Part shown: positions 35,343 to 50,305 of the stretch, piece by piece
How the letters are laid out: every line of letters begins with the position of its first letter
Numbering within the stretch: position 1 is the stretch's first letter
Source: Gemmatimonadaceae bacterium
GTDB lineage: Bacteria; Gemmatimonadota; Gemmatimonadetes; Gemmatimonadales; Gemmatimonadaceae
Length of the DNA: 64,000 nucleotides
Assembly (NCBI GenBank): GCA_051859245.1
Contig: JBHYGA010000004.1
Span: 352,001 to 416,000, forward strand
Reading direction: 5' to 3'
Program-made: the position numbers and the translations under genes
Notes under the pieces: generated by a model
Seen by the model: only the letters and a program-made list of their open reading frames with translations
What the model was told of the DNA's origin: nothing
Database searches by the model: none

Positions 35343-35828
35343 ATGATTCACGAAGTCGAAGGCGATATTCTGCTCTCGGGCGCGCACGCGATCGCGCACG
35401 GCGTTTCGCCCAACGATCACTTTGACGTTGGCTTGGCCCTCGCGCTCCGCGAAATGTGGCCGTCAATGGCCAAGGATTTCCGGCACTACGCCCATCAGGC
35501 GCATCCTACACCCGGCACGGTGTGGACCTATCCCACCGCCGACGGTCGGGTGATCTACAATCTCATCACACAGGAAGGCGAGCAGCTGCGCGGCGGCTCG
35601 TCCGGCGCGGCGTCGGTCTCCAACGTGCACCACGCGCTCAAGGCGCTGCGGGTCCAACTCGAGAAAGACGGCGTTCGAAGCCTCGCCCTTCCGCGGCTCG
35701 CCACCGGCGCCGGTCGCCTGGACTGGGCCGACGTCCGGCCGCTCATCGCGCAACAGCTCGGTGACCTGCCCATCCCCGTCTATCTGTACACCACCTTCCA
35801 CCACGGTCAGGCCGCCAAAGAGTCTTGA
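35343..35828 (+). CDS. Macro domain protein (ADP-ribose processing)
   Basis: EVEGDIL, AIAHGV, GLALAL, IYNLITQ, SLALPRLATGAGRLDW. Confidence 0.85.
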   Translation: MIHEVEGDILLSGAHAIAHGVSPNDHFDVGLALALREMWPSMAKDFRHYAHQAHPTPGTVWTYPTADGRVIYNLITQEGEQLRGGSSGAASVSNVHHALKALRVQLEKDGVRSLALPRLATGAGRLDWADVRPLIAQQLGDLPIPVYLYTTFHHGQAAKES

Positions 35829-35873
35829 CACCCTCGCATTCTGGTGCGACTTTGTTTGCCGTCCGAACAAAGT
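35825..35873 (+). promoter_or_regulatory. Promoter with ROK-type operator (left arm of glycan locus)
   Basis: TTGACA at 35825; inverted repeat ACTTTGTTTGCCGTCCGAACAAAGT at 35849-35873. Confidence 0.75.
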
Positions 35874-35933: not shown

Positions 35934-38900
35934 ATGAGCCCGACTCGAACGCCCCTGACCCGATCACGGGTCAGGCGCCGGTTCGCCCCCGCCGCCGCGC
36001 TTGCCGCGGCGCTGTTGCTCTCGGCGACGCCGACCATCTCGGCTCAGACGCCTCAAAACATCCGTGTGGTCAGCGACGCGTCGGGGGCCCGACTGCAGGT
36101 GAACGGTCGGGACTTCATGGTGCTCGGCATGAACTGGGACTATTTCCCGATCGGCCAGAACTACGCCTACAACTTCTGGGGCCAGTCCGACGAGTTCATT
36201 CGCACGGCGCTGGATCGGGAAATGGCGCTGCTCAAAAGCATGGGCGTCAACACGATCCGTCAATACAACGGCGTGCCACCCAAATGGGTGCGATACATCT
36301 ACGAGAACTTTGGCATCTACACCGTACTGAATCACGCGGTGGGGCGATACGGCGTGACGGTAGGCGGCGCCTACAAGGCCAATACTGACTATTCAGATCC
36401 GCGCGTGCGCGAGCTGCTCAAGGCCGAAGTCGCGGCATTGGTGGAGCAGTTCCGCGGCACACCGGGTCTGCTCATGTACATGCTCGGCAACGAAAACAAT
36501 TACGGGTTGGAATGGAAATCGGCCGAGACGGAAAACCTGCCCGTTGGCGAACGGAACGCGGCCAAGGCGCGGTATTTGTATTCGCTCTTTGGCGAGATCA
36601 TTCGGGACATCAAAACGCGTGATCCCGCGGTGCCCGTGGCAATGGCGAATGGCGACCTGCAGTACATCGACATCATTGCCGCTGAGACCAAGGGTCTCGA
36701 CGTATTCGGCACGAACGTGTACCGCGGTATTTCGTTTGGAAATCTGTTTGCCGAAGTCAAGGAGAAACTCGGGCTGCCAGTGATGTTCACGGAGTTTGGC
36801 GCCGATGCCTACAATGCCAGAGAGCGTCGCGAAGACCAGCTTACGCAGGCACGCTATCTGCTTGGCCAGTGGCAGGAGATTTACGCGCAGTCTGCCGGCA
36901 AGGGCGGCGTTGGAAATGCGATTGGTGGCATGACCTTCCAATGGTCAGACGGGTGGTGGAAGGTAGGACAGGAAACCAATCTCGATGTGCAGGACAACGA
37001 CGCCGGATGGTCGAACGAGGCGTACCGCGAAGATTTCATGCGCGGTGACAACAACATGAATGAAGAGTGGTGGGGCATCATGGCCAAAGGCCCCACCGAT
37101 GCGCAGGGTCACTTTCAGCTGTATCCGCGCGCGGCGTACTACGCGTTGCAGCGCGCGTACGCGCTCGATCCGTACGGAACTGGTACCGACGCGGCACGTA
37201 TTCGCGCGCACTTCGGCGCGATTGCACCGGCGGCGATGGAACTGCTCGCCAACGGCAATCGTGCGGCGCGCGGTGCCGAGATCGGAGATCGGTATCGCAT
37301 TGCTGGCATGCGACTCGAACTGTCGAGCTTCAATACGGGTGGCAGCAACATCAGCACGCCGGCTGAGGGGACGACGCCGAGCCCAACGGCGCGGCCTGCC
37401 GTTCGCGGATTTGATCACCTCGAGTCGTATTTCGTTGATGTGGAAGCACGACCGGCGTCGAATGTGACCGCGATGCTGTCACTCAATGTGACGGGCAACA
37501 TCCCCGACAATCCGATCAACGAACTGTTCTACGAGAATCGCGCCCGCACACGCACGCTGCTGACCGATGGCGGACCGTCTGTAAGCACCGAGGGACTGGA
37601 GCGTTTGCGTGTGTACCGCGCGAGTTTGCGCTGGGACGAGCGCGATTTCCGTCTTGACGGTTTCTATCGTACCGGGCATTACCACTGGGGTTACGAAGGC
37701 GACTTCTTTGGCATGTACCGTGAAGCGAACTACGGCGCCAATATTGACATTTATGGTGGTGAAGCACCGCTCGGCGTGGAGTTCACCGGAAAGCGCGCAC
37801 TGTCGGGACTCAAGCTGGCCGTGGGTCCGGAGCTCTGGTGGGGCGCGAACCCCGCGGTACTCGCGAAGTACCGCAAGCAAGTGGGTCGCTTTATGGTGAC
37901 GGGTGTGTATCAGGAAGATCTGGCGCAACGGGGGGCGACGTCGAGCTCGTTCGCTATCCCGCAGCCGCAAGTGCGCGCCACCACGATGCACGTTGCAACC
38001 ACGGTGGGACCCGCTGGCGTGGAGCTGGGCGGTATCTGGGGTGGCAATACACGTGTGGGTCGCACGTTCCAGATTGCCGATGGTGAGCCCGGCAACTATC
38101 GCGTGCTGCAGGATCGTGTGAAAGACAGCGATGCACTTGGTGCGAAAGCCAAGATCACGATCTCAAGTGGCCGCTGGAACTGGTACGCGCAAGGCGCAGC
38201 GATGGGCCTGGTTGCTGACGGTGGACAAACGTCAACGATGACGTTCACCGGATGGGGACTGAAGGACAGCGGTATGGGCAATCAGTGGAATGCGCTGAGC
38301 GGCTTTACGTATTCTGTTGGCAACGTGCAGATTGCGCCCAACTTTTTGTGGCAGAAGCCGATTGTTGGTCCCGTGCCGAGTGATGTGCCTGCGCCCGGCC
38401 GACCGCGCAACATTCTTGATGATCCGTTCTCGGTGCGATGGAATCGTGAAACGGTTGGCGCGGAGTTGTTGCTCACGTTTGATCCCACGCCGGCGACGTA
38501 CATGCATCTGTGGGATTCCGACACGCGGGAAGACGCGCGCCTCGCGGGCACACTTGGATTCACGTATCGCCACTTGCCCACCACGCAGGACGCCGCGATT
38601 GGTATTCTCGCCGACGGACGCACGTTTTTTGCCTTTCCGGGCGCTGCACCAGCACAGGACCTGTGGGAAGTGCGCAGCCGCGTGGTATCGCGCGTAGGTC
38701 AGGATGTACGTGTGATCGCCAATCTGTTTGGCGGTACAGCACAGGCCAATGGTGACAGCGATCGTTTGCTGCGTCGTTACGGCGGCGAGCTGCGCGCGGT
38801 GCGGAATCAGATCAAAGTGGCTGCCTCGGCCAAGTTCAACGATTGGGGACCGTTCGACTATCATCGCGACTTCAACCTCACGTTCCCCGAGCAGTACATG

Positions 38901-39119
38901 GCCGATGTGTCATACGTGCTCGGCATTCCCAACTGGACAGACGCGCCGGCTACACGGTTTGGCATTCGTGGCACGTGGCGATCACTCGACCGTTTCTCGC
39001 CGCGGTATTGTCCGGCCGAAGTACCCAATGCACTGGGTACGCCCACGTGCGATCCTACTGCTCCGGGTGCGCGCGGTTCAGAGTGGGAGATTCGCACGTA
39101 CCTCACGGTTGGTTGGTGA
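35934..39119 (+). CDS. Clan GH-A (GH2/GH158-like) glycoside hydrolase fused to a probable outer-membrane beta-barrel
   Basis: Signal peptide; MGVNTIRQY, LGNE (acid/base), FTEFG (nucleophile); about 600-aa amphipathic beta C-region ending EIRTYLTVGW. Confidence 0.75.
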   Translation: MSPTRTPLTRSRVRRRFAPAAALAAALLLSATPTISAQTPQNIRVVSDASGARLQVNGRDFMVLGMNWDYFPIGQNYAYNFWGQSDEFIRTALDREMALLKSMGVNTIRQYNGVPPKWVRYIYENFGIYTVLNHAVGRYGVTVGGAYKANTDYSDPRVRELLKAEVAALVEQFRGTPGLLMYMLGNENNYGLEWKSAETENLPVGERNAAKARYLYSLFGEIIRDIKTRDPAVPVAMANGDLQYIDIIAAETKGLDVFGTNVYRGISFGNLFAEVKEKLGLPVMFTEFGADAYNARERREDQLTQARYLLGQWQEIYAQSAGKGGVGNAIGGMTFQWSDGWWKVGQETNLDVQDNDAGWSNEAYREDFMRGDNNMNEEWWGIMAKGPTDAQGHFQLYPRAAYYALQRAYALDPYGTGTDAARIRAHFGAIAPAAMELLANGNRAARGAEIGDRYRIAGMRLELSSFNTGGSNISTPAEGTTPSPTARPAVRGFDHLESYFVDVEARPASNVTAMLSLNVTGNIPDNPINELFYENRARTRTLLTDGGPSVSTEGLERLRVYRASLRWDERDFRLDGFYRTGHYHWGYEGDFFGMYREANYGANIDIYGGEAPLGVEFTGKRALSGLKLAVGPELWWGANPAVLAKYRKQVGRFMVTGVYQEDLAQRGATSSSFAIPQPQVRATTMHVATTVGPAGVELGGIWGGNTRVGRTFQIADGEPGNYRVLQDRVKDSDALGAKAKITISSGRWNWYAQGAAMGLVADGGQTSTMTFTGWGLKDSGMGNQWNALSGFTYSVGNVQIAPNFLWQKPIVGPVPSDVPAPGRPRNILDDPFSVRWNRETVGAELLLTFDPTPATYMHLWDSDTREDARLAGTLGFTYRHLPTTQDAAIGILADGRTFFAFPGAAPAQDLWEVRSRVVSRVGQDVRVIANLFGGTAQANGDSDRLLRRYGGELRAVRNQIKVAASAKFNDWGPFDYHRDFNLTFPEQYMADVSYVLGIPNWTDAPATRFGIRGTWRSLDRFSPRYCPAEVPNALGTPTCDPTAPGARGSEWEIRTYLTVGW

Positions 39120-41335
39120 CCACGCGTAGCACAGGTCGTTCCGTGTCTGTGGAGCAGCAGATCACCGCGCTGCTTGCCCGCATGACACTGGACGAAAAGA
39201 TCGGGCAGTTGGCGCAGGTGAACGCGGCCGGCGGTCACGTGCCCGATCACCTGCGTGATGCGATTCGTGAAGGGCGCATTGGTTCGGTGCTGAATGAAGT
39301 GCACGTTGAGACCGTCAACGAGCTGCAGCGACTCGCGGTCCACGAAAGTCGGCTCGGTATTCCGCTGCTGATCGGGCGCGATGTTATTCACGGGTTCACT
39401 ACCGTATTTCCGATTCCGCTGGGGCAAGCGGCCAGCTGGAATCCTGCGTTGGTAGAAGAAGGCGCGCGCATCGCCGCGTACGAAGCGGCCGCGTGCGGTG
39501 TGAACCTGACGTTCGCGCCCATGATCGACATTGCGCGCGATCCTCGGTGGGGACGTGTGGCCGAATCACTCGGAGAAGATCCGCATCTTACCGGCGTGCT
39601 GGGCGCGGCCATGGTTCGCGGCTTTCAGGGTGACGACCTGGCACACGATGGCAGTATTGCCGCGTGTGCGAAACACTTTGCGGGCTACGGCGCAAGCGAG
39701 AGTGGTCGCGACTACAACACCACCAACATTCCCGAGAACGAGTTGCGAAACGTCTATCTGCCGCCGTTCAAGGCGGCGGTGGATGCGGGCGTCGCCAGTC
39801 TCATGACCTCGTTCTCCGATCTGGATGGTGTGCCTGCGTCGGCCAATACCTTCTTGCTCAGACAGGTGCTGCGCGACGAGTGGCGCGCCGATGCCATGGT
39901 GATCAGTGACTGGGAATCCATTCGGCAACTGGCCGTACACGGGTTCACGGAGAACGACCGCGAATCGGCGTACCAGGCGGCCACGGCGGGCGTTGATATG
40001 GAAATGGCCAGCACCACGTACGCTGATCATCTCGCGTCGCTTGTGCGCGAGGGGCGAGTGACTGAACAAACGGTCGATGCGTTGGTGCGGAATGTGTTGC
40101 GCGTGAAGTTTCGTCTGGGATTGTTCGACAACGCGCAAACGAATGCCTCCACGTATGCGCCCGCGGCAAACGCAGAACACTTGAAGGCCGCATACAACGC
40201 CGCGGTAGCGAGCGCGGTACTGCTCAAGAACGACGATTGGGCGCTGCCGCTCGATGTCGACTCGTTGGAGCGCATTGCCGTGATCGGCCCCCTGGCGGAT
40301 GATCCGTACGAGCAACTTGGCACGTGGATCTTTGATGGCGACGCGGCACACAGTCGCACGGTGCTGCAGAGCATTCGCGAGTATGTGGGCGACCGCGCTA
40401 CGGTAGAGTTTGCGCGCGGCGTGCACACCACGCGCAGTCGCGGTCACGACGCGTTTGACGACGCGGTCGCGCTGGCTGCACGCGCTGATGTAACGATCCT
40501 GGTGCTTGGTGAAGAAGCGATTCTGTCGGGCGAGGCGCACTGCCGCGCCGACATTACGTTGCCCGGTGCACAGCAGGCGTTGCTGGAAGCCGTGTCGGCC
40601 ACGGGCACCAAAGTGATTCTGGTGCTGATGGCCGGCCGGCCACTCGCGCTTGAGGAGGCCGTGCGACATGCGCCGGCGATTCTGTATATGTGGCACCCCG
40701 GGACCATGGGTGGTGCCGCGATCTCTGACTTGTTGTTCGGTGTAGCGTCGCCAAGTGGTAAACTACCGGTCACGTTTCCGCGGGTGACGGGGCAAATCCC
40801 TATCTATTACGCGCACAAACACACCGGCAAACCCGCCACGGCTGAGTCATTCATTCACATGGAAGACATTGAGCCGCGGGCGCATCAGGTGTCGGTGGGC
40901 AACACCTCTTTTCATCTGGATGCCGGCTTCACGCCGCTCTTTCCGTTCGGGTTTGGTCTGTCGTACTCGCATGTGGAGTACGAGCACATGCAGTGCAGCA
41001 CGGCAGTGCTCACCATGAGCGGCCGCATTACGATCAGTGCTGACGTGGTGAACGTTGGTCCGCGTGCTGTTGAGGAAGTGGTGCAGCTATATGTGCGCGA
41101 CCTCGTCGGCGATGTGACACGACCGGTGAAGGAACTCAAAGGGTTTACTCGTGTGCGCCTTGAACGCGGTGAACGTCGCCACGTGTCCTTCACACTGACA
41201 CCACGCGATCTTGCGTTTTACGGGCGGGCGCAGCGCCTGATCGTGGAGCCGGGTCGCTTTCATGTCTGGATTGGAGGCAGTTCCAATCCGGAGCTGCGCG
41301 CTGAGTTCACGTTGGTCGACGACACGACGCACTAG
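39116..41335 (+). CDS. GH3 beta-glucosidase (BglX-like), no signal peptide
   Basis: DVIHG, RDPRWGR.AE, KHFAGYG, ISDW, PSGKLPVTFP, C-terminal Fn3-like EVVQLY; GTGA overlap with upstream gene. Confidence 0.93.
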   Translation: MTTRSTGRSVSVEQQITALLARMTLDEKIGQLAQVNAAGGHVPDHLRDAIREGRIGSVLNEVHVETVNELQRLAVHESRLGIPLLIGRDVIHGFTTVFPIPLGQAASWNPALVEEGARIAAYEAAACGVNLTFAPMIDIARDPRWGRVAESLGEDPHLTGVLGAAMVRGFQGDDLAHDGSIAACAKHFAGYGASESGRDYNTTNIPENELRNVYLPPFKAAVDAGVASLMTSFSDLDGVPASANTFLLRQVLRDEWRADAMVISDWESIRQLAVHGFTENDRESAYQAATAGVDMEMASTTYADHLASLVREGRVTEQTVDALVRNVLRVKFRLGLFDNAQTNASTYAPAANAEHLKAAYNAAVASAVLLKNDDWALPLDVDSLERIAVIGPLADDPYEQLGTWIFDGDAAHSRTVLQSIREYVGDRATVEFARGVHTTRSRGHDAFDDAVALAARADVTILVLGEEAILSGEAHCRADITLPGAQQALLEAVSATGTKVILVLMAGRPLALEEAVRHAPAILYMWHPGTMGGAAISDLLFGVASPSGKLPVTFPRVTGQIPIYYAHKHTGKPATAESFIHMEDIEPRAHQVSVGNTSFHLDAGFTPLFPFGFGLSYSHVEYEHMQCSTAVLTMSGRITISADVVNVGPRAVEEVVQLYVRDLVGDVTRPVKELKGFTRVRLERGERRHVSFTLTPRDLAFYGRAQRLIVEPGRFHVWIGGSSNPELRAEFTLVDDTTH

Positions 41336-41366: not shown

Positions 41367-43139
41367 ATGACCGCAAGACTCGCGGATCGCGAGACAATCG
41401 CCTACGTGGAAGCGCTGCTTTCCCGTCTTACGCTCGAGCAGAAAGTCGGGCAAATGATGCAGCCCGAACGCATGGCCATCACGCCAGACGAAGTGGCGGA
41501 GTACCACATCGGCTCCGTGCTCAGCGGTGGTGGATCGGCGCCGGGTGCGAATACGGCCGCCGACTGGATCGCGATGAACGACGCGTACTGGATGGCGTCC
41601 ATGCGCAACGCACCAGGCCGCGTACCGATTCCGCTGTTATACGGCGTGGATGCGGTACACGGCCACGCCAACGTGCTCGGCGCGACGGTTTTTCCGCACA
41701 ACATCGGGCTTGGCGCCACGCGCGATCCTGACTTGATGGAACGCATCGCGCAGATCACAGCGCGCGAGGTGCTGGCCACCGGTGTGGACTGGACGTTTGC
41801 GCCGACACTCGCCGTGGCCAAGCACATCTACTGGGGGCGCACGTACGAGAGTTTTTCGGATGATCCGGCACTTGTGTCGTCGTATGCCGGCGCGCTCGTG
41901 CGCGGACTGCAGCAGGGTTTCGGTCGCGATGGTGTTGTAGCGTGCGCCAAGCACTGGGTTGGTGACGGCGGTACGACCAACGGCCGCGACCAGGGCAACA
42001 CTGCGATCTCCGAAGAGGAACTGGAGCGCACGCACATGTCGCCCTATTTGCCAGCGCTGAAAGAAGGAGTCCTCACGGTGATGGCGTCGTTCAACAGCTG
42101 GAACGGCGTAAAATGTCACGGCAATCGCTACCTGCTCACCGAGGTTCTCAAGGAGCGCCTGGGCTTTGACGGGTTTGTGATTTCCGACTGGGACGGTGTG
42201 GACTACTTGTCGGATGATCCCGCAGAAGCCGTGGCGATGGCGGCAAACGCTGGCGTTGACATGTTCATGGTCTCAGTCGAGTGGAAGCGCTGTCTGGCAC
42301 ACTTGCTGGAGCACGCGCGGTCGGGTGTTGTGCCCATGTCGCGCATTGATGATGCCGTGCGCCGCATTCTCACCGTGAAGCATCGCTACGGATTGTTCGA
42401 TCGACCGCGTCCCGCGGAGCGGTATTGGTCGACGGAGCCGTGTCTTGGCGCCGCCGAACATCGCGAGGTGGCGCGTGAAGCGGTTCGCAAATCGCTAGTG
42501 CTACTGCAGAACAACAACGGAGTACTGCCGCTGGATCGTTCGGCGCGCATTCTCGTGGCGGGCAAGAACGCGGACAACCGCGGGCGTCAATGCGGTGGCT
42601 TTACCGTGGCGTGGCAGGGCACGAGTGGCAACGAACAGATCGTCGGTGGTACCTCAATCTGGGAAGGCATCAAGCAAGTTGCGCCGCATGCGCACCTCAG
42701 CGTGGATGGCAGCGCGGCCAATGCCGCAGCGCACGATGTGGCCATCGTGGTGATCGGCGAACGGCCGTACGCGGAAGGCATGGGCGACATTCGTCCGCCC
42801 GGTACCGTCGCCCCAGGCTCAAGCCCTGAAGGGCGCACGGCCAAACTTGATGCGTATGGTCAAACCATTGAGCACGCCGTCTCGCATCCCGAAGATCTGG
42901 CCACGATTCGTGCCATTACGCGTCAGGGCATACCGGTGATTGCGGTGCTCGTATCTGGTCGCCCTCTCATTGTAGATGCCGAGCTGTCAGAGACGTCGGC
43001 GTTTGTGGCCGCGTGGTTGCCCGGCTCAGAAGGTCAGGGAGTGGCTGATGTGTTGTTTGGTGATCATCCGTTCACCGGCGTGCTGCCGTTTGCGTGGCCG
43101 CATATTTCGACGCGTTGGCCGCGTGGTTACGGGCTGTAG
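41367..43139 (+). CDS. GH3 exo-beta-glucanase/beta-glucosidase, no signal peptide
   Basis: GSVLSGGGS, DAVHGH, FPHNIGLGA, WGRTYES, KHWVGDGGT, ISDW, GERPYAEG.GD, AAWLPGSEG. Confidence 0.93.
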   Translation: MTARLADRETIAYVEALLSRLTLEQKVGQMMQPERMAITPDEVAEYHIGSVLSGGGSAPGANTAADWIAMNDAYWMASMRNAPGRVPIPLLYGVDAVHGHANVLGATVFPHNIGLGATRDPDLMERIAQITAREVLATGVDWTFAPTLAVAKHIYWGRTYESFSDDPALVSSYAGALVRGLQQGFGRDGVVACAKHWVGDGGTTNGRDQGNTAISEEELERTHMSPYLPALKEGVLTVMASFNSWNGVKCHGNRYLLTEVLKERLGFDGFVISDWDGVDYLSDDPAEAVAMAANAGVDMFMVSVEWKRCLAHLLEHARSGVVPMSRIDDAVRRILTVKHRYGLFDRPRPAERYWSTEPCLGAAEHREVAREAVRKSLVLLQNNNGVLPLDRSARILVAGKNADNRGRQCGGFTVAWQGTSGNEQIVGGTSIWEGIKQVAPHAHLSVDGSAANAAAHDVAIVVIGERPYAEGMGDIRPPGTVAPGSSPEGRTAKLDAYGQTIEHAVSHPEDLATIRAITRQGIPVIAVLVSGRPLIVDAELSETSAFVAAWLPGSEGQGVADVLFGDHPFTGVLPFAWPHISTRWPRGYGL

Positions 43140-43253: not shown

Positions 43254-44804
43254 CTATGTCGCCAACGCCGGTCCAGGATTGCCACGTCGTGCTTCGAGCT
43301 GCTCTCGCACTTCGCGCGCTCGTGCTTCGGTGATCGGATACGTTGCGACGGCCCAGATGGCGAGGCCCGACGTCACCATGGGTATGACGGCATCACACAA
43401 CCGCATCAGGAAGATCGTGTTTTCGGTTTGCGTACCGCCGAGCGAGACATCAAAACCGGTCGCGTTCAGCAGATAGCCGCCGGCCGCGAGCGCTGCGGCC
43501 ATGCCAAGCTTTACCACCCACCAGAAGATCGAGCCGAACATTCCTTCGCGCCGCTGATAGGTCTCCACTTCATCAGCGTCTACAACATCGGCAATCATTG
43601 ATCCCATGAGCGTGAACAATCCGCCAAGCCCAAACGCCATCAGTGGCACCGGCAGCATCAGCAACATCGGATACTTCGGATTATAGCAGAACCACTTGAG
43701 ACCGTAGCCAAGAATGGAAAGGCCTGTGCTCACAAAGAATGCTTTGCGTTTGCCGATTCTTGTGCTGAGCCAGGTAATGAAAAAAATGACGCCGAACGTT
43801 GAGGCCGCGCCGAGCGTACCGGCGTATCCAGCGTAGCGCGCACCCAACTCCTGATCGCCGCCAAACACGTAGTAGATGATCACGTACGTCTGAAACGACG
43901 AGATCATGATGAAGCCATTGAACACGAGGAATGTGGCCACGCACAACTTGATGAACGGCTTTGAGCGCAGCGTAGTGGCAAAGCCCTTGCCGAACTCTTT
44001 CATGTTCCGGCCAAACGCGGCGAAGCGGGATTCGCGCTTGGTCGGCACGTTGGGGTCTGCCGACGCCATCACAAATCGCTCGCGCAGGAAGATTGCGGGA
44101 ATGACTCCGATCATGATCGTGGCGACACCGATACCGATGGCCAGGCCTTTGGCACCGGCGATCTGATTGGGAAACCACGGTTTGTACGTCATGATCCAGA
44201 GAAACCATGGCGACACCAGATACGCGAGCTGACCAATGAAATTCTGCACGCCCATCAGGCGCGTGCGCTCGTGATAGTCGGGTGTGAGTTCGTAACCCAG
44301 CGCAACCCATGGCGTTGCGTAGACTGTGTACGCCAGGTAAAAAATGTTCGAGCCGGTCAAAAAGAACCAGAAATAGAACGACTCACTTCTTCCGCCAGGC
44401 AGCTGCCACAACAGGGCGAAGATGATACCAGACGCAATGGCCCCGGCGAAGATGTACGGGCGACGCCTTCCCCAACGCGACGATGTGTTATCCGAGATGT
44501 AACCCATCATCGGATCAGTGAGCGCGTCGAGAATCCGCGGAAGCGCACCGAGCAAGCCCACCAATGCGGGATTCATGCCCAGTCCGAGATTGAGCACGAT
44601 GACCATGCCACCAATAGCGGCCGCGAGCAGGTTGTTTACGAACGCACCCGACCCGTAGGCGAGCTTTCGCGCAAACGAGATGCGATCCGCCGCGGCGGTC
44701 GAGTACTGCGCGGTGAACCCAGTGTGCCCCGAATCGTCGATGCGCGCGTGCCACGCGGCAATGGCAAGCTTCCAGAGGTTGCGCCCGCGCGAAGCGATAC
44801 TCAT
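43254..44804 (-). CDS. GPH-family (MFS) glycoside:cation symporter
   Basis: KLAYG.G, DALTDPMMGYISD.T.SRWGRRRPY, ELTPDYHERT, MIADVVD...RREG. Confidence 0.92.
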   Translation of the reverse strand: MSIASRGRNLWKLAIAAWHARIDDSGHTGFTAQYSTAAADRISFARKLAYGSGAFVNNLLAAAIGGMVIVLNLGLGMNPALVGLLGALPRILDALTDPMMGYISDNTSSRWGRRRPYIFAGAIASGIIFALLWQLPGGRSESFYFWFFLTGSNIFYLAYTVYATPWVALGYELTPDYHERTRLMGVQNFIGQLAYLVSPWFLWIMTYKPWFPNQIAGAKGLAIGIGVATIMIGVIPAIFLRERFVMASADPNVPTKRESRFAAFGRNMKEFGKGFATTLRSKPFIKLCVATFLVFNGFIMISSFQTYVIIYYVFGGDQELGARYAGYAGTLGAASTFGVIFFITWLSTRIGKRKAFFVSTGLSILGYGLKWFCYNPKYPMLLMLPVPLMAFGLGGLFTLMGSMIADVVDADEVETYQRREGMFGSIFWWVVKLGMAAALAAGGYLLNATGFDVSLGGTQTENTIFLMRLCDAVIPMVTSGLAIWAVATYPITEARAREVREQLEARRGNPGPALAT

Positions 44805-45592
44805 GGTACGGTCTCGTACACCCGCACCCAGTCCACCAACATGGTTTGCGGAAAGCGCGTTTGTGCATCAGGCGCACCCACAAACGTGCCACCAACGGCC
44901 ACGTTGAGAATGATGTAGAACGGATGGTCAAACACCCACTCACCTCGCACATCACCGCGGCGCACGGTGTGGTAGAGTGTGCCGTCGACGAAGAAATCAA
45001 TGCGGGCATCAGACCATTCGATGCTGAACTCATGGAAATCGTCGTCGAAACGCGCCTGCTGTAACTCGTAGCGCCGCGTGATCGCGTTGCCGCCAGAGTA
45101 TCCCGGTCCATGCACACTACCGAGCACAACCCGCGGCTCCTGCCCGCGGTATTCCATCACATCGATTTCACCAGTCTGCGGCCAGCCGACAACATCAATG
45201 TCTGCACCCAACAACCAGAACGCGGGCCAAATGCCCTGACCAACCGGCAACTTGATGCGCGCTGCAATGCGACCGTACTGAAACTCGCGCCGCCCTTTGG
45301 TGGTGATGCGAGCCGATGTATAGGCCCGTCCTTCGAATGATTCCGCACGAGCGGTAATGGCCAGATTGCCGCTGCCATCAAGCGACGCGTTAGCGGCCCG
45401 ATTGGTGTCGTACTCGAGCTGTGCGTTACCCCAATCGGTGCCCACATCGAACTGCCAGTTGGCAGCGCTGGGCAACGTACCGGCCGTGCCTTCAAACTCA
45501 TCTTCCCAAACGAGCGTCCACGACGGACTGGGATCAGTGCACCCGAAGAGCGAAGCGGCAAGCGCCGCGAGTAGTACAGCCTGTCGGGTCAT
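44801..45592 (-). CDS. GH16 endo-beta-1,3-glucanase (laminarinase-type) lipoprotein
   Basis: Lipobox LFGC; LVWEDEF, YTSARI, G.WPAFW, WP..GEIDVME, ILNVAVGG, VDWVRVY. Confidence 0.93.
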   Translation of the reverse strand: MTRQAVLLAALAASLFGCTDPSPSWTLVWEDEFEGTAGTLPSAANWQFDVGTDWGNAQLEYDTNRAANASLDGSGNLAITARAESFEGRAYTSARITTKGRREFQYGRIAARIKLPVGQGIWPAFWLLGADIDVVGWPQTGEIDVMEYRGQEPRVVLGSVHGPGYSGGNAITRRYELQQARFDDDFHEFSIEWSDARIDFFVDGTLYHTVRRGDVRGEWVFDHPFYIILNVAVGGTFVGAPDAQTRFPQTMLVDWVRVYETVP

Positions 45593-45613: not shown

Positions 45614-46864
45614 CTAGCGCGCGCCGATGGTGGGAAAGAGCGACGGATCGTTCAGCGCCGCTTCAAGCACAAGCGTGGCGGCGCCAACAGCAACGCCGAG
45701 TGGGCCGAGTTCACTGTGCCGGATTTCAGACGCGGCAACAGCGCTCACAAACGTCCGACGAAGCACAACTTCACGTAGCGGACCGATCAGTCGGTGACCA
45801 ACGCGCGTCAGCCCACCGCCAATAATGACGGCGGCAGGATTCATCAGGTTGAGCAGCCCCGCGATGGCAATACCGAGGTATTCCGCCGCTTCGCACACCA
45901 CCTGGACCGCGAGCGGATCGTCAGTGATCGCGGCTGATTCGATCGCTTCAATCGTGAGTGACGATGTGCCATGCAGCGATGACGCAGGAAACTCCGGTAA
46001 CAGCGCGCGCGCGCGTTCGACCAAGGCATTCGCACCAACGAATGTGACGAGACATCCCCGGTTGCCGCAGTTGCACACGGCGCCGCGCGGATCAATCGCC
46101 ACGTGACCGATTTCTCCGGCGACGCCGGTAGCTCCGCGCCGCACGCGTCCATCAATCACATGCCCCGACCCAATGCCGGTTGCCACCTTGATGTACGCGA
46201 AGTCATTAAAACCACGGCCCGCTCCCCACCACTGCTCCGCCAACGCGCCAAGGTTCGCGTCATTGTCAATGAAAAGCGGCAGCGCAAACTGCGTTTGCAA
46301 CGCTTCGAACCCGTTGCGTCCACCCCAGTCGGGCATAGCCAGCGGTGAGAGGCGCTCCGGGTGACGCGGATCAACCGGGCTTGGCATGGCGATGCCAATG
46401 CCGAGTAAGCGATTGGGTGCACCGTGCCACTGCGCAATGCAGCGTGCAATCAGCTCGGCCACCAGCGTGCGGGTTCCGGCGGGATCGCGTCGTACAGGCC
46501 ATTCGCGATACTCAGAAGCGAGCACGCGGCCGCGCAGGTTGGTGAGCACTACCGTGATGTGCGTCGCGCCAACGTCCACGCCAATAATGCCGCAGGCATC
46601 ATCCTGAAACTCGAGATTGATCGGTCGTCGTCCGCCGCGCGATTCGCCAATGCCCGCTTCGGACACGAGTTCGGTGGCGATCAGGAATCCCACCAACTCC
46701 GACACGGTGGAGCGCGAGAGATCTTCACGACGCGCGATTTCGGCGCGCGAGATGGTGCGCTCCTTCCAGATCAGTCGCAGTACCGCATCCGCCAACGCGG
46801 ACGGACGCGGTACAACAGTCGGGGCAACACCAACGTCGGCGTCACTCATGATCTGGTCAGTCAT
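45614..46864 (-). CDS. ROK-family transcriptional repressor
   Basis: N-terminal HTH ISRAEIA...LSRSTVS, GGRRP; DNDANLGALAE, GEIGH, CNCGNRGCL. Confidence 0.93.
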   Translation of the reverse strand: MTDQIMSDADVGVAPTVVPRPSALADAVLRLIWKERTISRAEIARREDLSRSTVSELVGFLIATELVSEAGIGESRGGRRPINLEFQDDACGIIGVDVGATHITVVLTNLRGRVLASEYREWPVRRDPAGTRTLVAELIARCIAQWHGAPNRLLGIGIAMPSPVDPRHPERLSPLAMPDWGGRNGFEALQTQFALPLFIDNDANLGALAEQWWGAGRGFNDFAYIKVATGIGSGHVIDGRVRRGATGVAGEIGHVAIDPRGAVCNCGNRGCLVTFVGANALVERARALLPEFPASSLHGTSSLTIEAIESAAITDDPLAVQVVCEAAEYLGIAIAGLLNLMNPAAVIIGGGLTRVGHRLIGPLREVVLRRTFVSAVAASEIRHSELGPLGVAVGAATLVLEAALNDPSLFPTIGAR

Positions 46865-46907: not shown

Positions 46908-49328
46908 TCATTTGTGCAAGAGCACGTTGTCGACATAGACCGTATTCGGATCGGCCACCAGGATCAACTGCGCGAGATGGCCCCTGGTGGTGAGTCCGGT
47001 GAACTGCGAGAGCGGTACATCAAGGCGCGTCCACTGCCCGGTGCGGAGCCCTGGCGTGGTCGCGGCCGTGAGCGTGATCTCATGCTCGCGGTCATCACCA
47101 CCACCGAACGCGCCATTCGCGCCAAAGTCCACCAGCTTGATTTTGAACGTTGCCGGCGCTGCGGTGGGATCTGCTGTCCAGATATCCAGCGAGAAGTGCG
47201 TCATGGCCGTGGCATTGATCGGGCTCGACGTGAACTCAATCCCGGCAAACACCAGATTCGTGTACTTCTTCACCGTGTTGCCAGCAATCTGCACGTCTTC
47301 CACATCAGCGTTGTCCCACTGGGCCGACCACGTGTTCACCGTGACGTTGGTGTAGCTGTCGCTGAACAGTGAAATCACATCGGCCGCGGCAAATGTTGGC
47401 GCGGGCGCTGCGGTTGTTGGCGCGGTCGGCACCACGTTGGAATAGAAATACAGGTTGTCGAGGTAGACCGTGTTCGGATCACTCACGAAGATCAGCTGCG
47501 CCAGATGACCGCGTGTGACCAGCCCGGTGAACGCACTGAGCGGAATGTCCAGACTCGTCCACTCGCCCGTGCGGATACCAGGCGTGGACGCGGCGTCGAG
47601 CGTGAGTTCATGCTCAACATCATCGCCGCCACCGAACGCACCGTTGGCGCCAAAGTCCACCAGCTTGATCTTGAAGATCGCGGGCAACGCAGTGGCATCG
47701 GGGGTCCAGAAGTCCACATGGAAACCCGTCATCGCGGTGGCGTTGACTGTTGGTGCCGTGAACTCGATGCCGGCGAAGGTGAAGTTTGTGTATTTCTTGA
47801 CGTTGTTGCCGGCGATCTGCACGTCTTCAAGATCGGCGTCGTCCCACGGCGCTGACCACGTGGACACCGGCACGTTGGTGTACGTGTCGCTGAAGAGCGA
47901 GATCACACTCGACGCCGGACGTGTGGGAGCCGGCGCGGCGGTGGTTGGAACAGACACCGGTGGTGGCGGCGCCTTGTAGAAATACAGATTATCGAGATAC
48001 AGCGTGGAGCTGGAACTCGTAATGATCATTTGCGCGAGGTTGCCGCGCGCGTTGAGGCCCGTGAACGAGGAGAGCGGAATCTCCACCGTGCTCCACGCGT
48101 TGGCCGTGAGCCCCGACGACACCGTCACTTCATGTTCGCTGTCGTCACCGCCGCCAAACACACCGTTCGCACCGAAGTTGACGAGCTTGACGCGGAACGA
48201 GGAGGTGTTGCGAAGGAAGACATTGAGATGCAGATGCGTCATCGCCGCTGCGTTGACGGTCCGCGTGATGAACTCGATGCCAGCGAACGAGAGATTCGCG
48301 TATTTCTTGGTGTCGTTGCCCGCGATCTGGACATCGGACACATCGGCCATGTCCCAGTCGGCCGACCATTTATCGACGGGCACGTTGGTGTACGCGTTGC
48401 TGAACAGCGAGACGACATCGGCCGCCACGCGTGTTGGTGTGGGCGCCGCCGTGGTTGGCGGGCTGAGCGCGTTGATTGTGACGGCACCCGCGGCCGCTGT
48501 TTCGCCGAGCGCCGCGCTCACCGTGGCGGAGCCCGGTCCGACTACCGAAATGGCGCCGGTTGGTGTTACCGCTGCAACGGCCGCATTTGATGAGCGAAAG
48601 GTGAAATACGCGGCGGCCGCTTCGACCACCACGTCACGCCCGTCCACATCGAAGGTGACCGTGGTGCCGGTCACATCGACTGTGGCGCCGACTTCGCCGC
48701 TGAGTGTGGCCGACGCGATGGCGGGTCGGGTGTTGCGAATCGTGCCCAGTGTCTCAAAACGGATTTCATCAATCCAGAGATCGTACCCCACGCCGTTCTC
48801 CGGCCCCTCGGCAAAGAAGAACATGCCGCGCTCTTCCATGAGTTTGCTGGCCAGTGGAAGTGGAATCACCACTTTTTGCCAGGAGGTTGTGAGCGGAATA
48901 CCGCCGCGCTGGGCGGTAAAGCGCGATTCGCCGGTGTTATCGTTGGCGAAGCCGGCCACGTCGAGCGTGGCACTGCGGCTGGCCCGCGCGTAGAACGTGA
49001 GCGCGTCATAGGCACTCAGGTCGCGCGCCACGTTGGCGACGAAGGCACCGCCGGCGTACGAACCGGCCGGATCGCCTACCGATGGAATCGTGATTTTGAG
49101 CGCCGATGTGCCGCGGAACTTGACGCCGGGATCGATCGCGACCGCGTCCACCTTGGAGCCGGCGAACGCCTGGAATGAGACGCCTGCTGCGTATCCGTCG
49201 CCGAAGATATCCGGTTCGCTTGGGAAGGGCGCAAGATCGAGTGAACTGATATCGCGGCTGCAGGCGGCGAGGATCAGCGACACCCCAACCAACGCGAGAA
49301 CGTGGCGTGAGGACGATCGCGGGTGCAT
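46908..49328 (-). CDS. Surface glycan-binding-like lipoprotein with three tandem ~170-aa repeats
   Basis: Lipobox LAAC; Ig-like linker; 3 x PTTAAP.PT....V.SLFS..YTNV....WSA.WD...KLV.FGANG.FGGGDD.EHE. Confidence 0.8.
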   Translation of the reverse strand: MHPRSSSRHVLALVGVSLILAACSRDISSLDLAPFPSEPDIFGDGYAAGVSFQAFAGSKVDAVAIDPGVKFRGTSALKITIPSVGDPAGSYAGGAFVANVARDLSAYDALTFYARASRSATLDVAGFANDNTGESRFTAQRGGIPLTTSWQKVVIPLPLASKLMEERGMFFFAEGPENGVGYDLWIDEIRFETLGTIRNTRPAIASATLSGEVGATVDVTGTTVTFDVDGRDVVVEAAAAYFTFRSSNAAVAAVTPTGAISVVGPGSATVSAALGETAAAGAVTINALSPPTTAAPTPTRVAADVVSLFSNAYTNVPVDKWSADWDMADVSDVQIAGNDTKKYANLSFAGIEFITRTVNAAAMTHLHLNVFLRNTSSFRVKLVNFGANGVFGGGDDSEHEVTVSSGLTANAWSTVEIPLSSFTGLNARGNLAQMIITSSSSTLYLDNLYFYKAPPPPVSVPTTAAPAPTRPASSVISLFSDTYTNVPVSTWSAPWDDADLEDVQIAGNNVKKYTNFTFAGIEFTAPTVNATAMTGFHVDFWTPDATALPAIFKIKLVDFGANGAFGGGDDVEHELTLDAASTPGIRTGEWTSLDIPLSAFTGLVTRGHLAQLIFVSDPNTVYLDNLYFYSNVVPTAPTTAAPAPTFAAADVISLFSDSYTNVTVNTWSAQWDNADVEDVQIAGNTVKKYTNLVFAGIEFTSSPINATAMTHFSLDIWTADPTAAPATFKIKLVDFGANGAFGGGDDREHEITLTAATTPGLRTGQWTRLDVPLSQFTGLTTRGHLAQLILVADPNTVYVDNVLLHK

Positions 49329-49395
49329 CTGCGTGCTCCGAGGAGGGGGCGGAGGTCCGCATCCACGAGCGACCGGGCAGGCGCTGGCAGACGGG

Positions 49396-49445
49396 CTTTG
49401 TTTGGCTAGCGAACAAAGTATGCGGCTCAAGGCGGACGCTGTCAA
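49396..49445 (-). promoter_or_regulatory. Promoter with ROK-type operator (right arm of glycan locus)
   Basis: Minus strand TTGACA-N17-CATACT; inverted repeat CTTTGTTTGGCTAGCGAACAAAG at 49396-49418. Confidence 0.78.
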
Positions 49446-49597: not shown

Positions 49598-50305
49598 GTG
49601 TCGCCCTCGTCCAAAACTGTCCGTCCCGTGTCGCGCGCTGCCGCGAAGAACGCTGTCGACGTTGCCCGTCCCTTCGAAGTGCGCCGCTCGCGAATTCAAG
49701 GTCGTGGTGTGTTCGCCACGCAGCAGATTCGCAAAGGCAAGAAGATCATTGAGTATGTGGGTCAGCCGATCACGCATGAAGAAGCGGATCGACGCTACGA
49801 TGATGCAGAAGGTCGCCATCATACGTTTCTGTTCGTGTTGAACGACGACACTGTGCTTGATGCGCGCTACGGCGGAAACGATGCGCGATTTCTGAACCAT
49901 TCCTGCGATCCGAACTGCGAGACGGAAATCGACAACGACCGGATCTGGATCAAGTCGATCAAGCCCATCGCTCCCGAAACAGAGCTGGTGTACGACTATC
50001 GTTTCGAATGGGACGATGCCTACGAGCCGGAAGACGTGCGCTATTACGCGTGTCGTTGCGGCAGTGCGAAGTGTCGAGGCACGATTTTGCGCGTGCCCGT
50101 GTACCTGCGGAAAACGGTGCGTGAATGGTTGGCGGGCAACGATGTGCCCAAGCCACGCAAGCCGCGCAAGAAAGTGGCGAAGAAAGTGGCGAAGAAGGTG
50201 ACGAAGAAGGCCACTCGCAAGGTTGGAAAAACGGGTGCGAAAAAAGCGGTCCGGAAAACCACTCGCAAAGCCGCGAAAAAAACCACGAAGAAAAACGCGA
50301 CGTGA
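49598..50305 (+). CDS. SET-domain lysine methyltransferase with post-SET domain and Lys-rich tail
   Basis: IQGRGVFA, IIEYVG, ARFLNHSCDPNC, ELVYDY, CRCGSAKCRG; tail KKVAKKVAKKVTKK; start approximate. Confidence 0.92.
   Translation: MSPSSKTVRPVSRAAAKNAVDVARPFEVRRSRIQGRGVFATQQIRKGKKIIEYVGQPITHEEADRRYDDAEGRHHTFLFVLNDDTVLDARYGGNDARFLNHSCDPNCETEIDNDRIWIKSIKPIAPETELVYDYRFEWDDAYEPEDVRYYACRCGSAKCRGTILRVPVYLRKTVREWLAGNDVPKPRKPRKKVAKKVAKKVTKKATRKVGKTGAKKAVRKTTRKAAKKTTKKNAT

Follow-up and report, generated by a model that had tools for sequence, protein, structure and literature searches.

One gene in the 64,000-nucleotide stretch analysed here (the window; Gemmatimonadaceae contig JBHYGA010000004.1) is predicted to encode an enzyme of the beta-1,3-glucanase type and a 24-stranded outer-membrane beta-barrel in a single polypeptide. 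We assign a probability of roughly 55 per cent to the reading that this fusion protein is a plug-free channel for beta-1,3-glucan, which carries its glucanase in the periplasm, has a lipoprotein partner on the outside of the cell and feeds an MFS (major facilitator superfamily) transporter and cytoplasmic enzymes of glycoside hydrolase (GH) family 3. The computed results cover the arrangement of domains, the fold of the barrel, the catalytic residues, the surrounding genes, the operator and co-occurrence, and it is from these that we infer channel activity.

In the proposed mechanism, an 806-residue lipoprotein and a GH16 lipoprotein would catch and nick the glucan at the cell surface, and chains or oligomers of the laminarin type would pass the barrel, whose conserved loops would serve as a sugar-selective constriction. 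The fused GH158-like domain would cut the fragments on their arrival in the periplasm; this cutting would keep the gradient steep and trap the product without a TonB plug. The MFS symporter would then carry the short oligomers across the inner membrane, glucose would be released by two GH3 enzymes, and a ROK repressor would open both operons. An earlier, sequence-only reading had described the protein as an enzyme fused to an outer-membrane barrel, a view borne out at the level of prediction by a signal peptide, a TIM barrel and a 24-stranded barrel model. It had also spoken of "cut and import"; the predicted topology places the enzyme in the periplasm, and "import, then cut" fits better.

Enzyme and barrel of the fusion protein

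The open reading frame of the fusion gene codes for 1061 amino acids (117 kDa) and starts with ATG; residue 1 is already aligned in a 96% identical homolog (L001), and the closest named homolog (96%) is from a Gemmatimonadaceae genome. As judged by eye, residues 1-37 consist of a basic n-region, a hydrophobic core and an ISA/Q end. The Tat-like RRRF in this segment is not conserved in homologs, and a Tat reading was dropped. The family is large: 4978 of the 7999 scored candidates of similar length matched the fusion protein, and at least 709 of 711 candidate stretches from GTDB genomes were confirmed as homologs. Among the carriers that are named are Gemmatimonadota, Flavobacterium, Algoriphagus, Nonlabens, Myxococcota, Eisenbacteria and Ignavibacteria. 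A barrel query was positive in 27 of 301 sampled Gemmatimonadota genomes and in 70 of 251 genomes of the Flavobacteriaceae, the family to which the Nonlabens genome belongs. Two genomes (G164 and G432) hold two full copies of the barrel gene each. No RNA data set holding the fusion gene was listed.

In the full-length model, residues ~42-430 fold as a TIM barrel with the features of clan GH-A, namely a (beta/alpha)8 fold in which strand 4 is followed by Asn-Glu and strand 7 by Glu. The GNE (G185-N186-E187) and TEFG (T286-G289) motifs, which the sequence-only reading had picked out as catalytic, are invariant in 121 of 121 close homologs, and 81 of the 84 fused homologs left by dereplication at 70% identity retain both E187 and E287. 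The best Foldseek matches of the domain were BuGH158, GH158(Pro) and LaGH157. LaGH157 also led the VIA-align list (Z 28.4, root mean square deviation (rmsd) 3.2, 318 aligned), with a GH2, a GH158 and a GH5 mannanase at most 2 Z units away, so that the fold alone leaves the substrate unfixed. A profile of 35 family members ranked two GH158 structures first (E 2.7e-10 and 7.2e-10) and GH2 beta-galactosidases behind them (E 5e-5); the BuGH158 match spans ~190 positions with 19-20% identity in the structural alignment, and both motifs align with the GH158 catalytic region. A PDB sequence search with the single fusion protein gave no significant match. According to the available part of PMC7157763 the catalytic residues of BuGH158 are N136-E137 and E220, to which N186-E187 and E287 of the fusion correspond. 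The fusion thus shares with GH158 (BuGH158, 6PAL; GH158(Pro), 9ORO) and GH157 (LaGH157, 9FZ9) the GH-A TIM barrel, the Asn-Glu/Glu arrangement and a beta-1,3-glucan context. It differs from them in having only 16-20% identity (structural alignments), and in place of the C-terminal immunoglobulin (Ig)-like domain of the GH158 type the model has a helix followed by the 600-residue membrane barrel. As judged from these comparisons the domain is probably a beta-1,3-glucanase related to GH158, membership of that family not being established.

The database labels "GH2" and "beta-galactosidase" attached to the gene are unsupported. Pfam returned a lone sub-threshold match to the GH2 TIM barrel (PF02836, residues 90-294, scoring 16.6 bits where the cut-off is 21) and no further GH2 domain in the protein, and the TIM barrel begins straight after the signal peptide, leaving no GH2 accessory N-terminal domains. 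Three fusions lack the catalytic residues and retain the barrel (P0273, GSSHN/YFSLG; P0293, GSSHN/YFTLG; P0357, GNDKV/FHGIG); they are possibly binding-only variants. In P0349 a carbohydrate-binding module (CBM), CBM4_9, is added N-terminal of the GH domain, and the extra N-terminal part of P0245 is a partial second GH-like region. Many distant loci (in L140-L185, e.g. L145:14433-16235) have a second, separate GH-A protein of ~600 amino acids encoded two to three genes downstream, which is related to the fused enzyme domain.

The C-terminal ~600 residues, which had been read as beta-strands from about position 37290, turn beta-rich at residue 454 (nt 37293). AlphaFold2 modelled residues 452-1061 alone, from 123 sequences, with pLDDT 94.0 and pTM 0.90, and 24 long strands were counted on the secondary-structure strings of the models. 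The links between strands alternate in length (after odd strands, median 26 amino acids; after even strands, median 2; p = 1e-4), and hydrophobic residues make up 71% of one strand face and 30% of the other (mean of 96 homologs). The prediction thus combines a signal peptide, an even number of amphipathic strands, long loops with short turns and an amphipathic last strand, as in an outer-membrane barrel. The combined AlphaFold and Foldseek check that the sequence-only reading had proposed found, among the structural matches listed, membrane beta-barrels only; the closest solved ones reached a TM-score of at most 0.42 with 4-12% identity, values by which a new fold is unproven. AlgE ranked top, tied with MOMP and OmpM (Z 14.8, rmsd 5.5, 279 aligned), and the FimD/PapC ushers aligned end to end (Z 12.9, rmsd 6.6, 356 aligned). 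Pfam, NCBIfam and PDB sequence searches with the barrel returned no family. The last strand is of the beta-signal type, as had been claimed, but the aromatic terminus is not universal: Trp is the final residue in 82 of 121 close homologs; among 96 non-redundant homologs, 49 have an aromatic and 82 a hydrophobic residue at the end, and many Bacteroidota copies end in -GK.

It had been noted at the outset that a C-terminal region folding as soluble beta-sandwich domains, in a periplasmic or secreted protein, would speak against a barrel. GH157, GH158 and GH2 enzymes do bear C-terminal beta-sandwiches, and the region has no porin match in Pfam or NCBIfam. Modelling, however, contradicts such a fold: the pTM 0.90 model, the structural matches listed, all of them membrane barrels, the strictly two-faced strands and the existence of stand-alone forms made up of a signal peptide and the barrel domain alone leave this explanation with almost no credit.

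Conservation points to the loops. Fifty-nine barrel positions are conserved to at least 80% in fused and stand-alone forms alike, most of them in loops L3, L4, L7, L8 and L11 and in the 20-residue turn T8; H584, W585, E588, D590, F592, W636, W860, E866 and D975, aromatic and acidic residues among them, belong to the conserved set. Such residues would fit a sugar-lined constriction. The 21 positions conserved in fused forms only are scattered, with none in periplasmic turns, and do not locate an enzyme interface. Cys1026 and Cys1039 are conserved in close homologs and lie in the last long loop (residues 1019-1047, nt 38988-39074); they likely form a disulfide on the outer side.

In outer-membrane proteins the short turns and both termini are normally on the periplasmic side. 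The even strand number and the short turns on the side of both termini therefore predict that the enzyme is attached on the periplasmic side. A periplasmic enzyme domain fits the model better unless the linker threads the pore, and cleavage would then more likely follow entry. The opposite arrangement, a channel whose enzyme is displayed outside with the linker threaded as in an autotransporter, corresponds to "cut and import" in the literal sense. A helix of conserved spacing precedes strand 1 (median 56 amino acids from P398 to residue 454 across homologs), as a helix does ahead of barrel strand 1 in EstA and similar enzyme autotransporters, and the additional CBM4_9 of P0349 sits at the N-terminus. 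The available part of PMC7157763 also proposes that BuGH158 acts at the cell surface. Against display stand the default topology, with the N-terminus in the periplasm, the presence of 24 strands rather than 12, and the fact that conservation is highest in long loops, which would compete with a linker for the lumen and are kept in passenger-free barrels. The enzyme domain of PlpD, formerly believed to be exported, stays in the periplasm (PMC11116518, as far as available). We regard surface display as unlikely.

Distant searches yielded proteins of 564-597 amino acids with no more than a signal peptide and the barrel; where named, they come from Pseudomonadales or Oceanospirillaceae. Eighty metagenome loci comprised 54 fused, 21 stand-alone and 5 truncated barrels. 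Sixteen of the 21 stand-alone loci, several of which are redundant or short, carry GH16, GH1 or a family-5 ABC importer, and both a TonB-dependent receptor and a separate GH-A gene are missing from all 21. In a midpoint-rooted tree, to which no clade test was applied, the stand-alone barrels (12 after removal of redundancy) group as a single clade (support 0.996) nested within the fused ones. The retention of the barrel in glucan clusters after loss of the enzyme argues that it is more than a mere anchor. In three loci (L116, L118 and L119) a stand-alone barrel is flanked by a large GH16 of several domains on one side and type I secretion genes (OEP, ABC, HlyD) on the other, in what appears to be one operon.

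Gene cluster, operator and candidate lipoprotein partner

In the window the fusion gene and two GH3 genes converge with the lipoprotein, ROK, GH16 and MFS genes (Table 1). Of 80 genome loci, 29 were shorter than 18 kb and were excluded, and neighbourhoods were counted by six-frame searches in the other 51. GH16 was present in 46, the lipoprotein in 42, GH3 and MFS in 35 each and ROK in 28; a GH149-type gene (a label taken from size and gene order, with no Pfam match) was found in 21 and GH17 in 15. Six loci had a TonB-dependent receptor and one had SusD, for which a single query was used. The usual order in Bacteroidota is regulator, fusion, lipoprotein, GH16, GH149, GH17, GH30 and MFS. The receptor count (6/51) is close to the ~11% of such windows expected by chance, in agreement with a fusion that occupies the position where SusC/SusD would normally be found. 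In 20 barrel-negative Gemmatimonadota genomes, picked from 46, the GH16 loci held a receptor in 9 cases and SusD in 3; compared with a receptor in 5 of 27 Gemmatimonadota barrel loci, the exclusion of SusC is not significant (9/20 versus 5/27, p = 0.06).

A 25-bp palindrome upstream of the fusion gene recurs upstream of the lipoprotein operon, and these are its only two exact matches in the 4.7-Mb genome, where 0.003 would be expected from base composition. Of 54 non-Bacteroidota loci, 37 have it upstream of the fusion gene; none of the 17 Bacteroidota loci does, and these often have another regulator. A matrix built on 57 sites from other loci scored the two sites of the window's genome at 36.0 and 34.2 and the next site at 15.4, and no TonB-receptor match came within 20 kb of any of its top 12 sites in that genome. 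In four of five other genomes the operator occurs exactly twice, with 11-15 kb between the sites at the locus. The palindrome is probably the binding site of the ROK repressor. With two operator sites only and none near a receptor, the fusion is the sole predicted outer-membrane barrel under this control in the window's genome, and no SusC was detectably co-regulated with the cluster there. The idea that the fusion replaces SusC therefore fits this genome, but not all carriers, for one locus (L053) has SusC/SusD beside the fusion and Formosa has two further SusC/SusD laminarin loci.

The content of the cluster also bears on the direction of transport. A barrel that exports beta-glucan made by the cell, in the manner of AlgE or BcsC, with the enzyme trimming the product, would agree with the top rank of AlgE among the structural matches, tied though it is with MOMP and OmpM, and with the GH149-type and GH17 genes of many loci, whose products are able to build glucans. 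The window cluster, however, is without glycosyltransferase, GH149 or GH17 and holds an importer, two glucosidases and a repressor instead, and the Formosa locus discussed below is induced by laminarin, not by glucose, according to the available data. Export is accordingly very improbable.

The conserved N-terminal domain of the lipoprotein begins at its conserved lipobox Cys and follows the barrel closely: it was found in 27 of 27 barrel-positive and in 1 of 274 barrel-negative Gemmatimonadota genomes (a GH16 query, for comparison, was positive in 73 of 301), and in Flavobacteriaceae in the same 70 of 251 genomes as the barrel, as adjacent genes. The pairing persists in three genomes (G065, G193 and G260) in which 57 to 308 kb separate the genes. 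Prediction of a barrel-lipoprotein complex gave a score of 0.58, against 0.01 for the best of three controls, with at least 72% of contacts agreeing between runs and a partner pLDDT of at least 86. At the mark applied, 116 of 157 solved pairs passed, as did 2 of 215 mismatched ones, and passes at or below 0.60 comprised 18 of the 157 solved pairs and both passing mismatches; the modelled complex thus lends weak support to the pairing. The lipoprotein is a candidate surface partner of the barrel. It has no SusD match and only marginal matches to CBM30-type structures (E 0.09), and its repeats have no sequence match to a solved structure. By context only, the three repeats resemble the laminarin-binding modules that surface glycan-binding proteins are described to have (bioRxiv 2023.09.07.556657, as far as available).

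In the distant clade (L123 and L130-L185, e.g. L145:11869-12486) the gene directly after the barrel codes for a conserved lipoprotein of 206-277 amino acids, apparently helical and with TPR-like sequence, for which Pfam and NCBIfam gave no match. Its profile matched 54 of the 80 metagenome loci and L072, and nothing in the window's genome; it is the next gene after the barrel in 51 of the 80. This protein is possibly an analogue of SusD.

A probable ortholog in Formosa and comparison with known systems

A locus of Formosa Hel1_33_131, polysaccharide utilization locus (PUL) 2, is reported in PMC6246565 (available in part, as holds for all data from it below) with the order FORMB_24670, a 49-kDa protein, GH16, PKD, GH149, GH17, GH30, MFS and GH17. 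FORMB_24670 is labelled "GH2", has 117 kDa and a signal peptide, and PUL 2 is without receptor or SusD, both of which are present in PULs 1 and 3 (PMC6246565 Tables S3, S7, S8). Order and masses match those of Flavobacteriaceae loci, in which the family has 116.9-118.6 kDa, and the neighbouring GH17 of L066 matches FbGH17A (E 1e-164). Gene order, GH2 label, mass and neighbouring GH17 make FORMB_24670 the probable ortholog of the fusion gene; no Formosa-named homolog was among the best 120 of 5011 matches.

In the membrane fraction FORMB_24670 made up 1.19% on laminarin and 0.006% on glucose, a ~196-fold difference (PMC6246565 Table S3). On laminarin its shares were 1.19, 0.67 and 0.18% (relative intensity-based absolute quantification, %riBAQ) in the membrane, extracellular and soluble fractions, and the receptors of the two laminarin loci, at 0.46% and 0.45% of the membrane fraction, were below it (PMC6246565). 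From these data the membrane-to-soluble ratio is 6.5 for FORMB_24670, 14 and 17 for the two receptors and 0.9-1.8 for the next three cluster proteins, and the order of fractions (membrane > extracellular > soluble) is the same as for the two TonB receptors. The protein was also detected in a 2009 bloom metaproteome (PMC6246565). The BOMP class 1 in Table S3 was set aside as barrel evidence: PKD and SusD lipoproteins share the class, which makes it uninformative.

The barrel itself appears to have gone undescribed in the literature searched, in which subscription journals were thinly covered. The available part of PMC6246565 mentions no barrel for FORMB_24670, and that of a 2026 Muricauda paper lists the gene in the position of the fusion as a GH2 glycosidase (PMC13188888). 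The published clusters with GH16, GH149, GH17, GH30 and MFS and without susCD have a head gene labelled only "GH2" (PMC13188888; PMC6246565 Table S7), and two further papers, in their accessible parts, mention loci without susCD and not the fusion protein. What is added here is the argument for periplasmic topology, the SusC-free regulon with two sites, the nesting of the enzyme-free barrels as one clade, the profile of the lipoprotein and the link to the Formosa proteomics.

Several points weigh against the channel reading. The full-length model is of lower quality (pLDDT 80.3, pTM 0.70) with a low-confidence linker, whose helix and coil of ~22 amino acids are long enough to thread a barrel; strand count and topology come from secondary-structure strings rather than coordinates. 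One locus (L053) has susC/susD upstream of the fusion and another (L028) a TonB-dependent receptor inside the locus, and a missing nearby SusC is weak evidence in Gemmatimonadota. The co-occurrence of lipoprotein and barrel may reflect inheritance of one cluster, related genomes not being independent; in the distant clade an unrelated helical lipoprotein (hhalign probability 7%) is next door, and 12 of the 15 stand-alone barrels with downstream sequence have something else as next gene. FORMB_24670 was assigned by gene order, label, mass and neighbouring GH17, two SusC/SusD laminarin loci are expressed on laminarin beside PUL 2 in the available Formosa data (PMC6246565), and no transport or enzyme characterisation was found for any family member.

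Some of these points would suit a barrel that is merely an anchor or scaffold for glucanase and lipoprotein, the sugar entering through SusC-type receptors or general porins. The two SusC/SusD loci expressed in Formosa are consistent with it, as are the 25 TonB-receptor barrel matches (23 above the cut-off) in the window's genome and the better conservation of the enzyme domain (median identity 52%, barrel 40%). On the other hand, barrels without the enzyme are kept in beta-glucan clusters with their loop residues conserved, the 3 of 84 fusions without catalytic residues still have the barrel, the operator is absent from every receptor gene, and a 600-residue barrel would be costly where a lipobox would suffice. 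We consider a pure anchor quite unlikely.

Slam proteins translocate lipoproteins to the cell surface, and the barrel could likewise be a translocon for its cognate lipoprotein. The near one-to-one pairing of the two in two phyla, the different lipoprotein next to the barrel in the distant clade (the 51 of 80 loci above) and the protein-moving role of the ushers, the other solved 24-strand barrels, can be cited for this view; yet the fused domain is a glycosidase and not a substrate-binding TPR or POTRA domain, and the 12 of 15 enzyme-free barrels mentioned above have no such next gene. A translocon is therefore improbable.

Among known systems, the SusC/SusD pairs (B. uniformis 1,3GUL; Formosa PULs 1 and 3) share with the fusion locus a large barrel at the head of the cluster, a dedicated lipoprotein, GH16 and induction by the substrate. 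The fusion differs from SusC in having 24 strands instead of 22, in lacking PF00593 and the plug PF07715, and in the TIM barrel and 22-residue linker that precede strand 1; its lipoprotein has no SusD match, its enzyme is fused, and the family occurs in several phyla. LamB, ChiP, CymA and AlgE/Occ-type porins, all among the structural matches, are like the barrel without a plug and with long conserved loops in which aromatic and acidic residues abound, whereas identity to them is 6-11% in partial alignments and they carry no fused enzyme. Such sugar-specific porins have 14-18 strands.

Enzyme autotransporters such as EstA have a hydrolase on an outer-membrane barrel, and EstA and PlpD (Omp85, type Vd) resemble the fusion in placing an N-terminal hydrolase on a C-terminal barrel. 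They are lipolytic, with 16 or 12 strands against the 24 of the fusion, and have no role in glycan uptake. The fusion has neither the 12 strands nor the PF03797 match of a type Va autotransporter, nor the 16 strands of Omp85/type Vd, and no POTRA in Pfam or in the model; the PlpD enzyme domain stays periplasmic (PMC11116518).

The ushers PapC and FimD have 24 strands, as the barrel model does, and align with it end to end, but at 7-8% identity and rmsd 5-7, with no usher Pfam match; the barrel model lacks the inserted plug sandwich (there is no long beta insertion between strands), and the annotated neighbours of the fusion are sugar-catabolic with no pilus genes. In the same Formosa cluster an MFS-GH17 fusion likewise joins a transporter to a laminarinase, although that transporter is alpha-helical and of the inner membrane (PMC6246565). 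The nearest named look-alikes in the Atlas were DUF6029 and Treponema Msp/MOSP (features 0.93-0.95); DUF6029 reached TM 0.55 with a stand-alone barrel, a comparison between predicted models and a lead only. The window protein has no match to PF19494, PF02707 or PF02722 at E up to 0.1, and nine of nine stand-alone members have no Pfam match to the DUF6029 or MOSP families at E up to 5. Taken together, the fusion most likely resembles a sugar porin or SusC/SusD pair in function, while it fails the tests for a TonB transporter, autotransporter, Omp85 protein or usher. Two C-terminal fragments (P0227 from Nonlabens ulvanivorans and P0228 from Jejuia pallidilutea) bear the UniRef name "TonB-dependent receptor(-like)", an automatic label that the barrel tests do not support.

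Laminarin ranks among the major carbon currencies of the sea. The available part of PMC6246565 credits SusC/SusD-type transporters with bringing it into the periplasm. In many bacteria with a cluster free of SusC/SusD the fusion is probably the laminarin entry gate, a claim directly testable in cultured Flavobacteriaceae; the laminarin clusters without susCD would then be complete uptake systems, substrate prediction based on SusC would overlook a route, and a new outer-membrane barrel family would acquire a function. More tentatively, and with somewhat less than even confidence, the family may represent a second class of glycan uptake free of a TonB plug, made up of a 24-stranded channel, a periplasmic glucanase ratchet and a dedicated lipoprotein lid. 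Such a class would extend over Bacteroidota, Gemmatimonadota, Myxococcota, Eisenbacteria and marine Gammaproteobacteria, would be present in 28% of sampled Flavobacteriaceae, and would account for part of the marine laminarin uptake now credited to SusC/SusD.

Features of the window and minor observations

Table 1. Predicted features of the fusion gene and its cluster (positions in the window)
Feature	Position	Strand	Remarks
Fusion gene	35934..39119	+	comprises signal peptide, GH-A domain, linker and outer-membrane barrel
Sec-type signal peptide, residues 1-37	35934..36044	+	read by eye; similar signals in homologs
Clan GH-A TIM barrel, residues ~42-430	36057..37223	+	acid/base E187 36492-36494; nucleophile E287 36792-36794
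Linker: helix 432-444 and coil up to strand 1	37227..37292	+	pLDDT <50 at 444-450
Predicted 24-stranded outer-membrane beta-barrel, residues 454-1061	37293..39116	+	final strand ends in Trp
GH3 beta-glucosidase, no signal peptide seen, probably cytoplasmic	39143..41335	+	
Second GH3 beta-glucosidase, no signal peptide seen	41367..43139	+	
MFS sugar symporter of GPH type, inner membrane	43254..44804	-	
GH16 laminarinase-type enzyme with lipobox	44801..45592	-	sole match to this GH16 in the genome
ROK-family repressor, helix-turn-helix and ROK domain	45614..46864	-	
806-residue lipoprotein (Cys23)	46908..49328	-	N-terminal beta domain (conserved), Ig-like domain, three ~176-residue repeats
Palindromic operator ACTTTGTT-N9-AACAAAGT	35849..35873	.	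60 nt upstream of the fusion gene
Second operator copy	49395..49419	.	upstream of the lipoprotein-ROK-GH16-MFS operon

Directly upstream of the fusion gene, on the same strand and before the operator, lies a gene with a weak Macro-domain match (35343-35828, +), which is conserved as a neighbour only in the closest loci. The sole Gemmatimonadota genome with the lipoprotein and without a barrel match (L242, G280:C38:3000-22900) has, close together, the lipoprotein and the operator along with GH16, GH3, GH149-type and separate GH-A genes and a short frame resembling a TonB receptor. Further downstream in the window (~49630-50305, +) is a gene for a protein with a lysine-rich, histone-like tail and 12-nt repeats, which presumably has SET-domain-like motifs.

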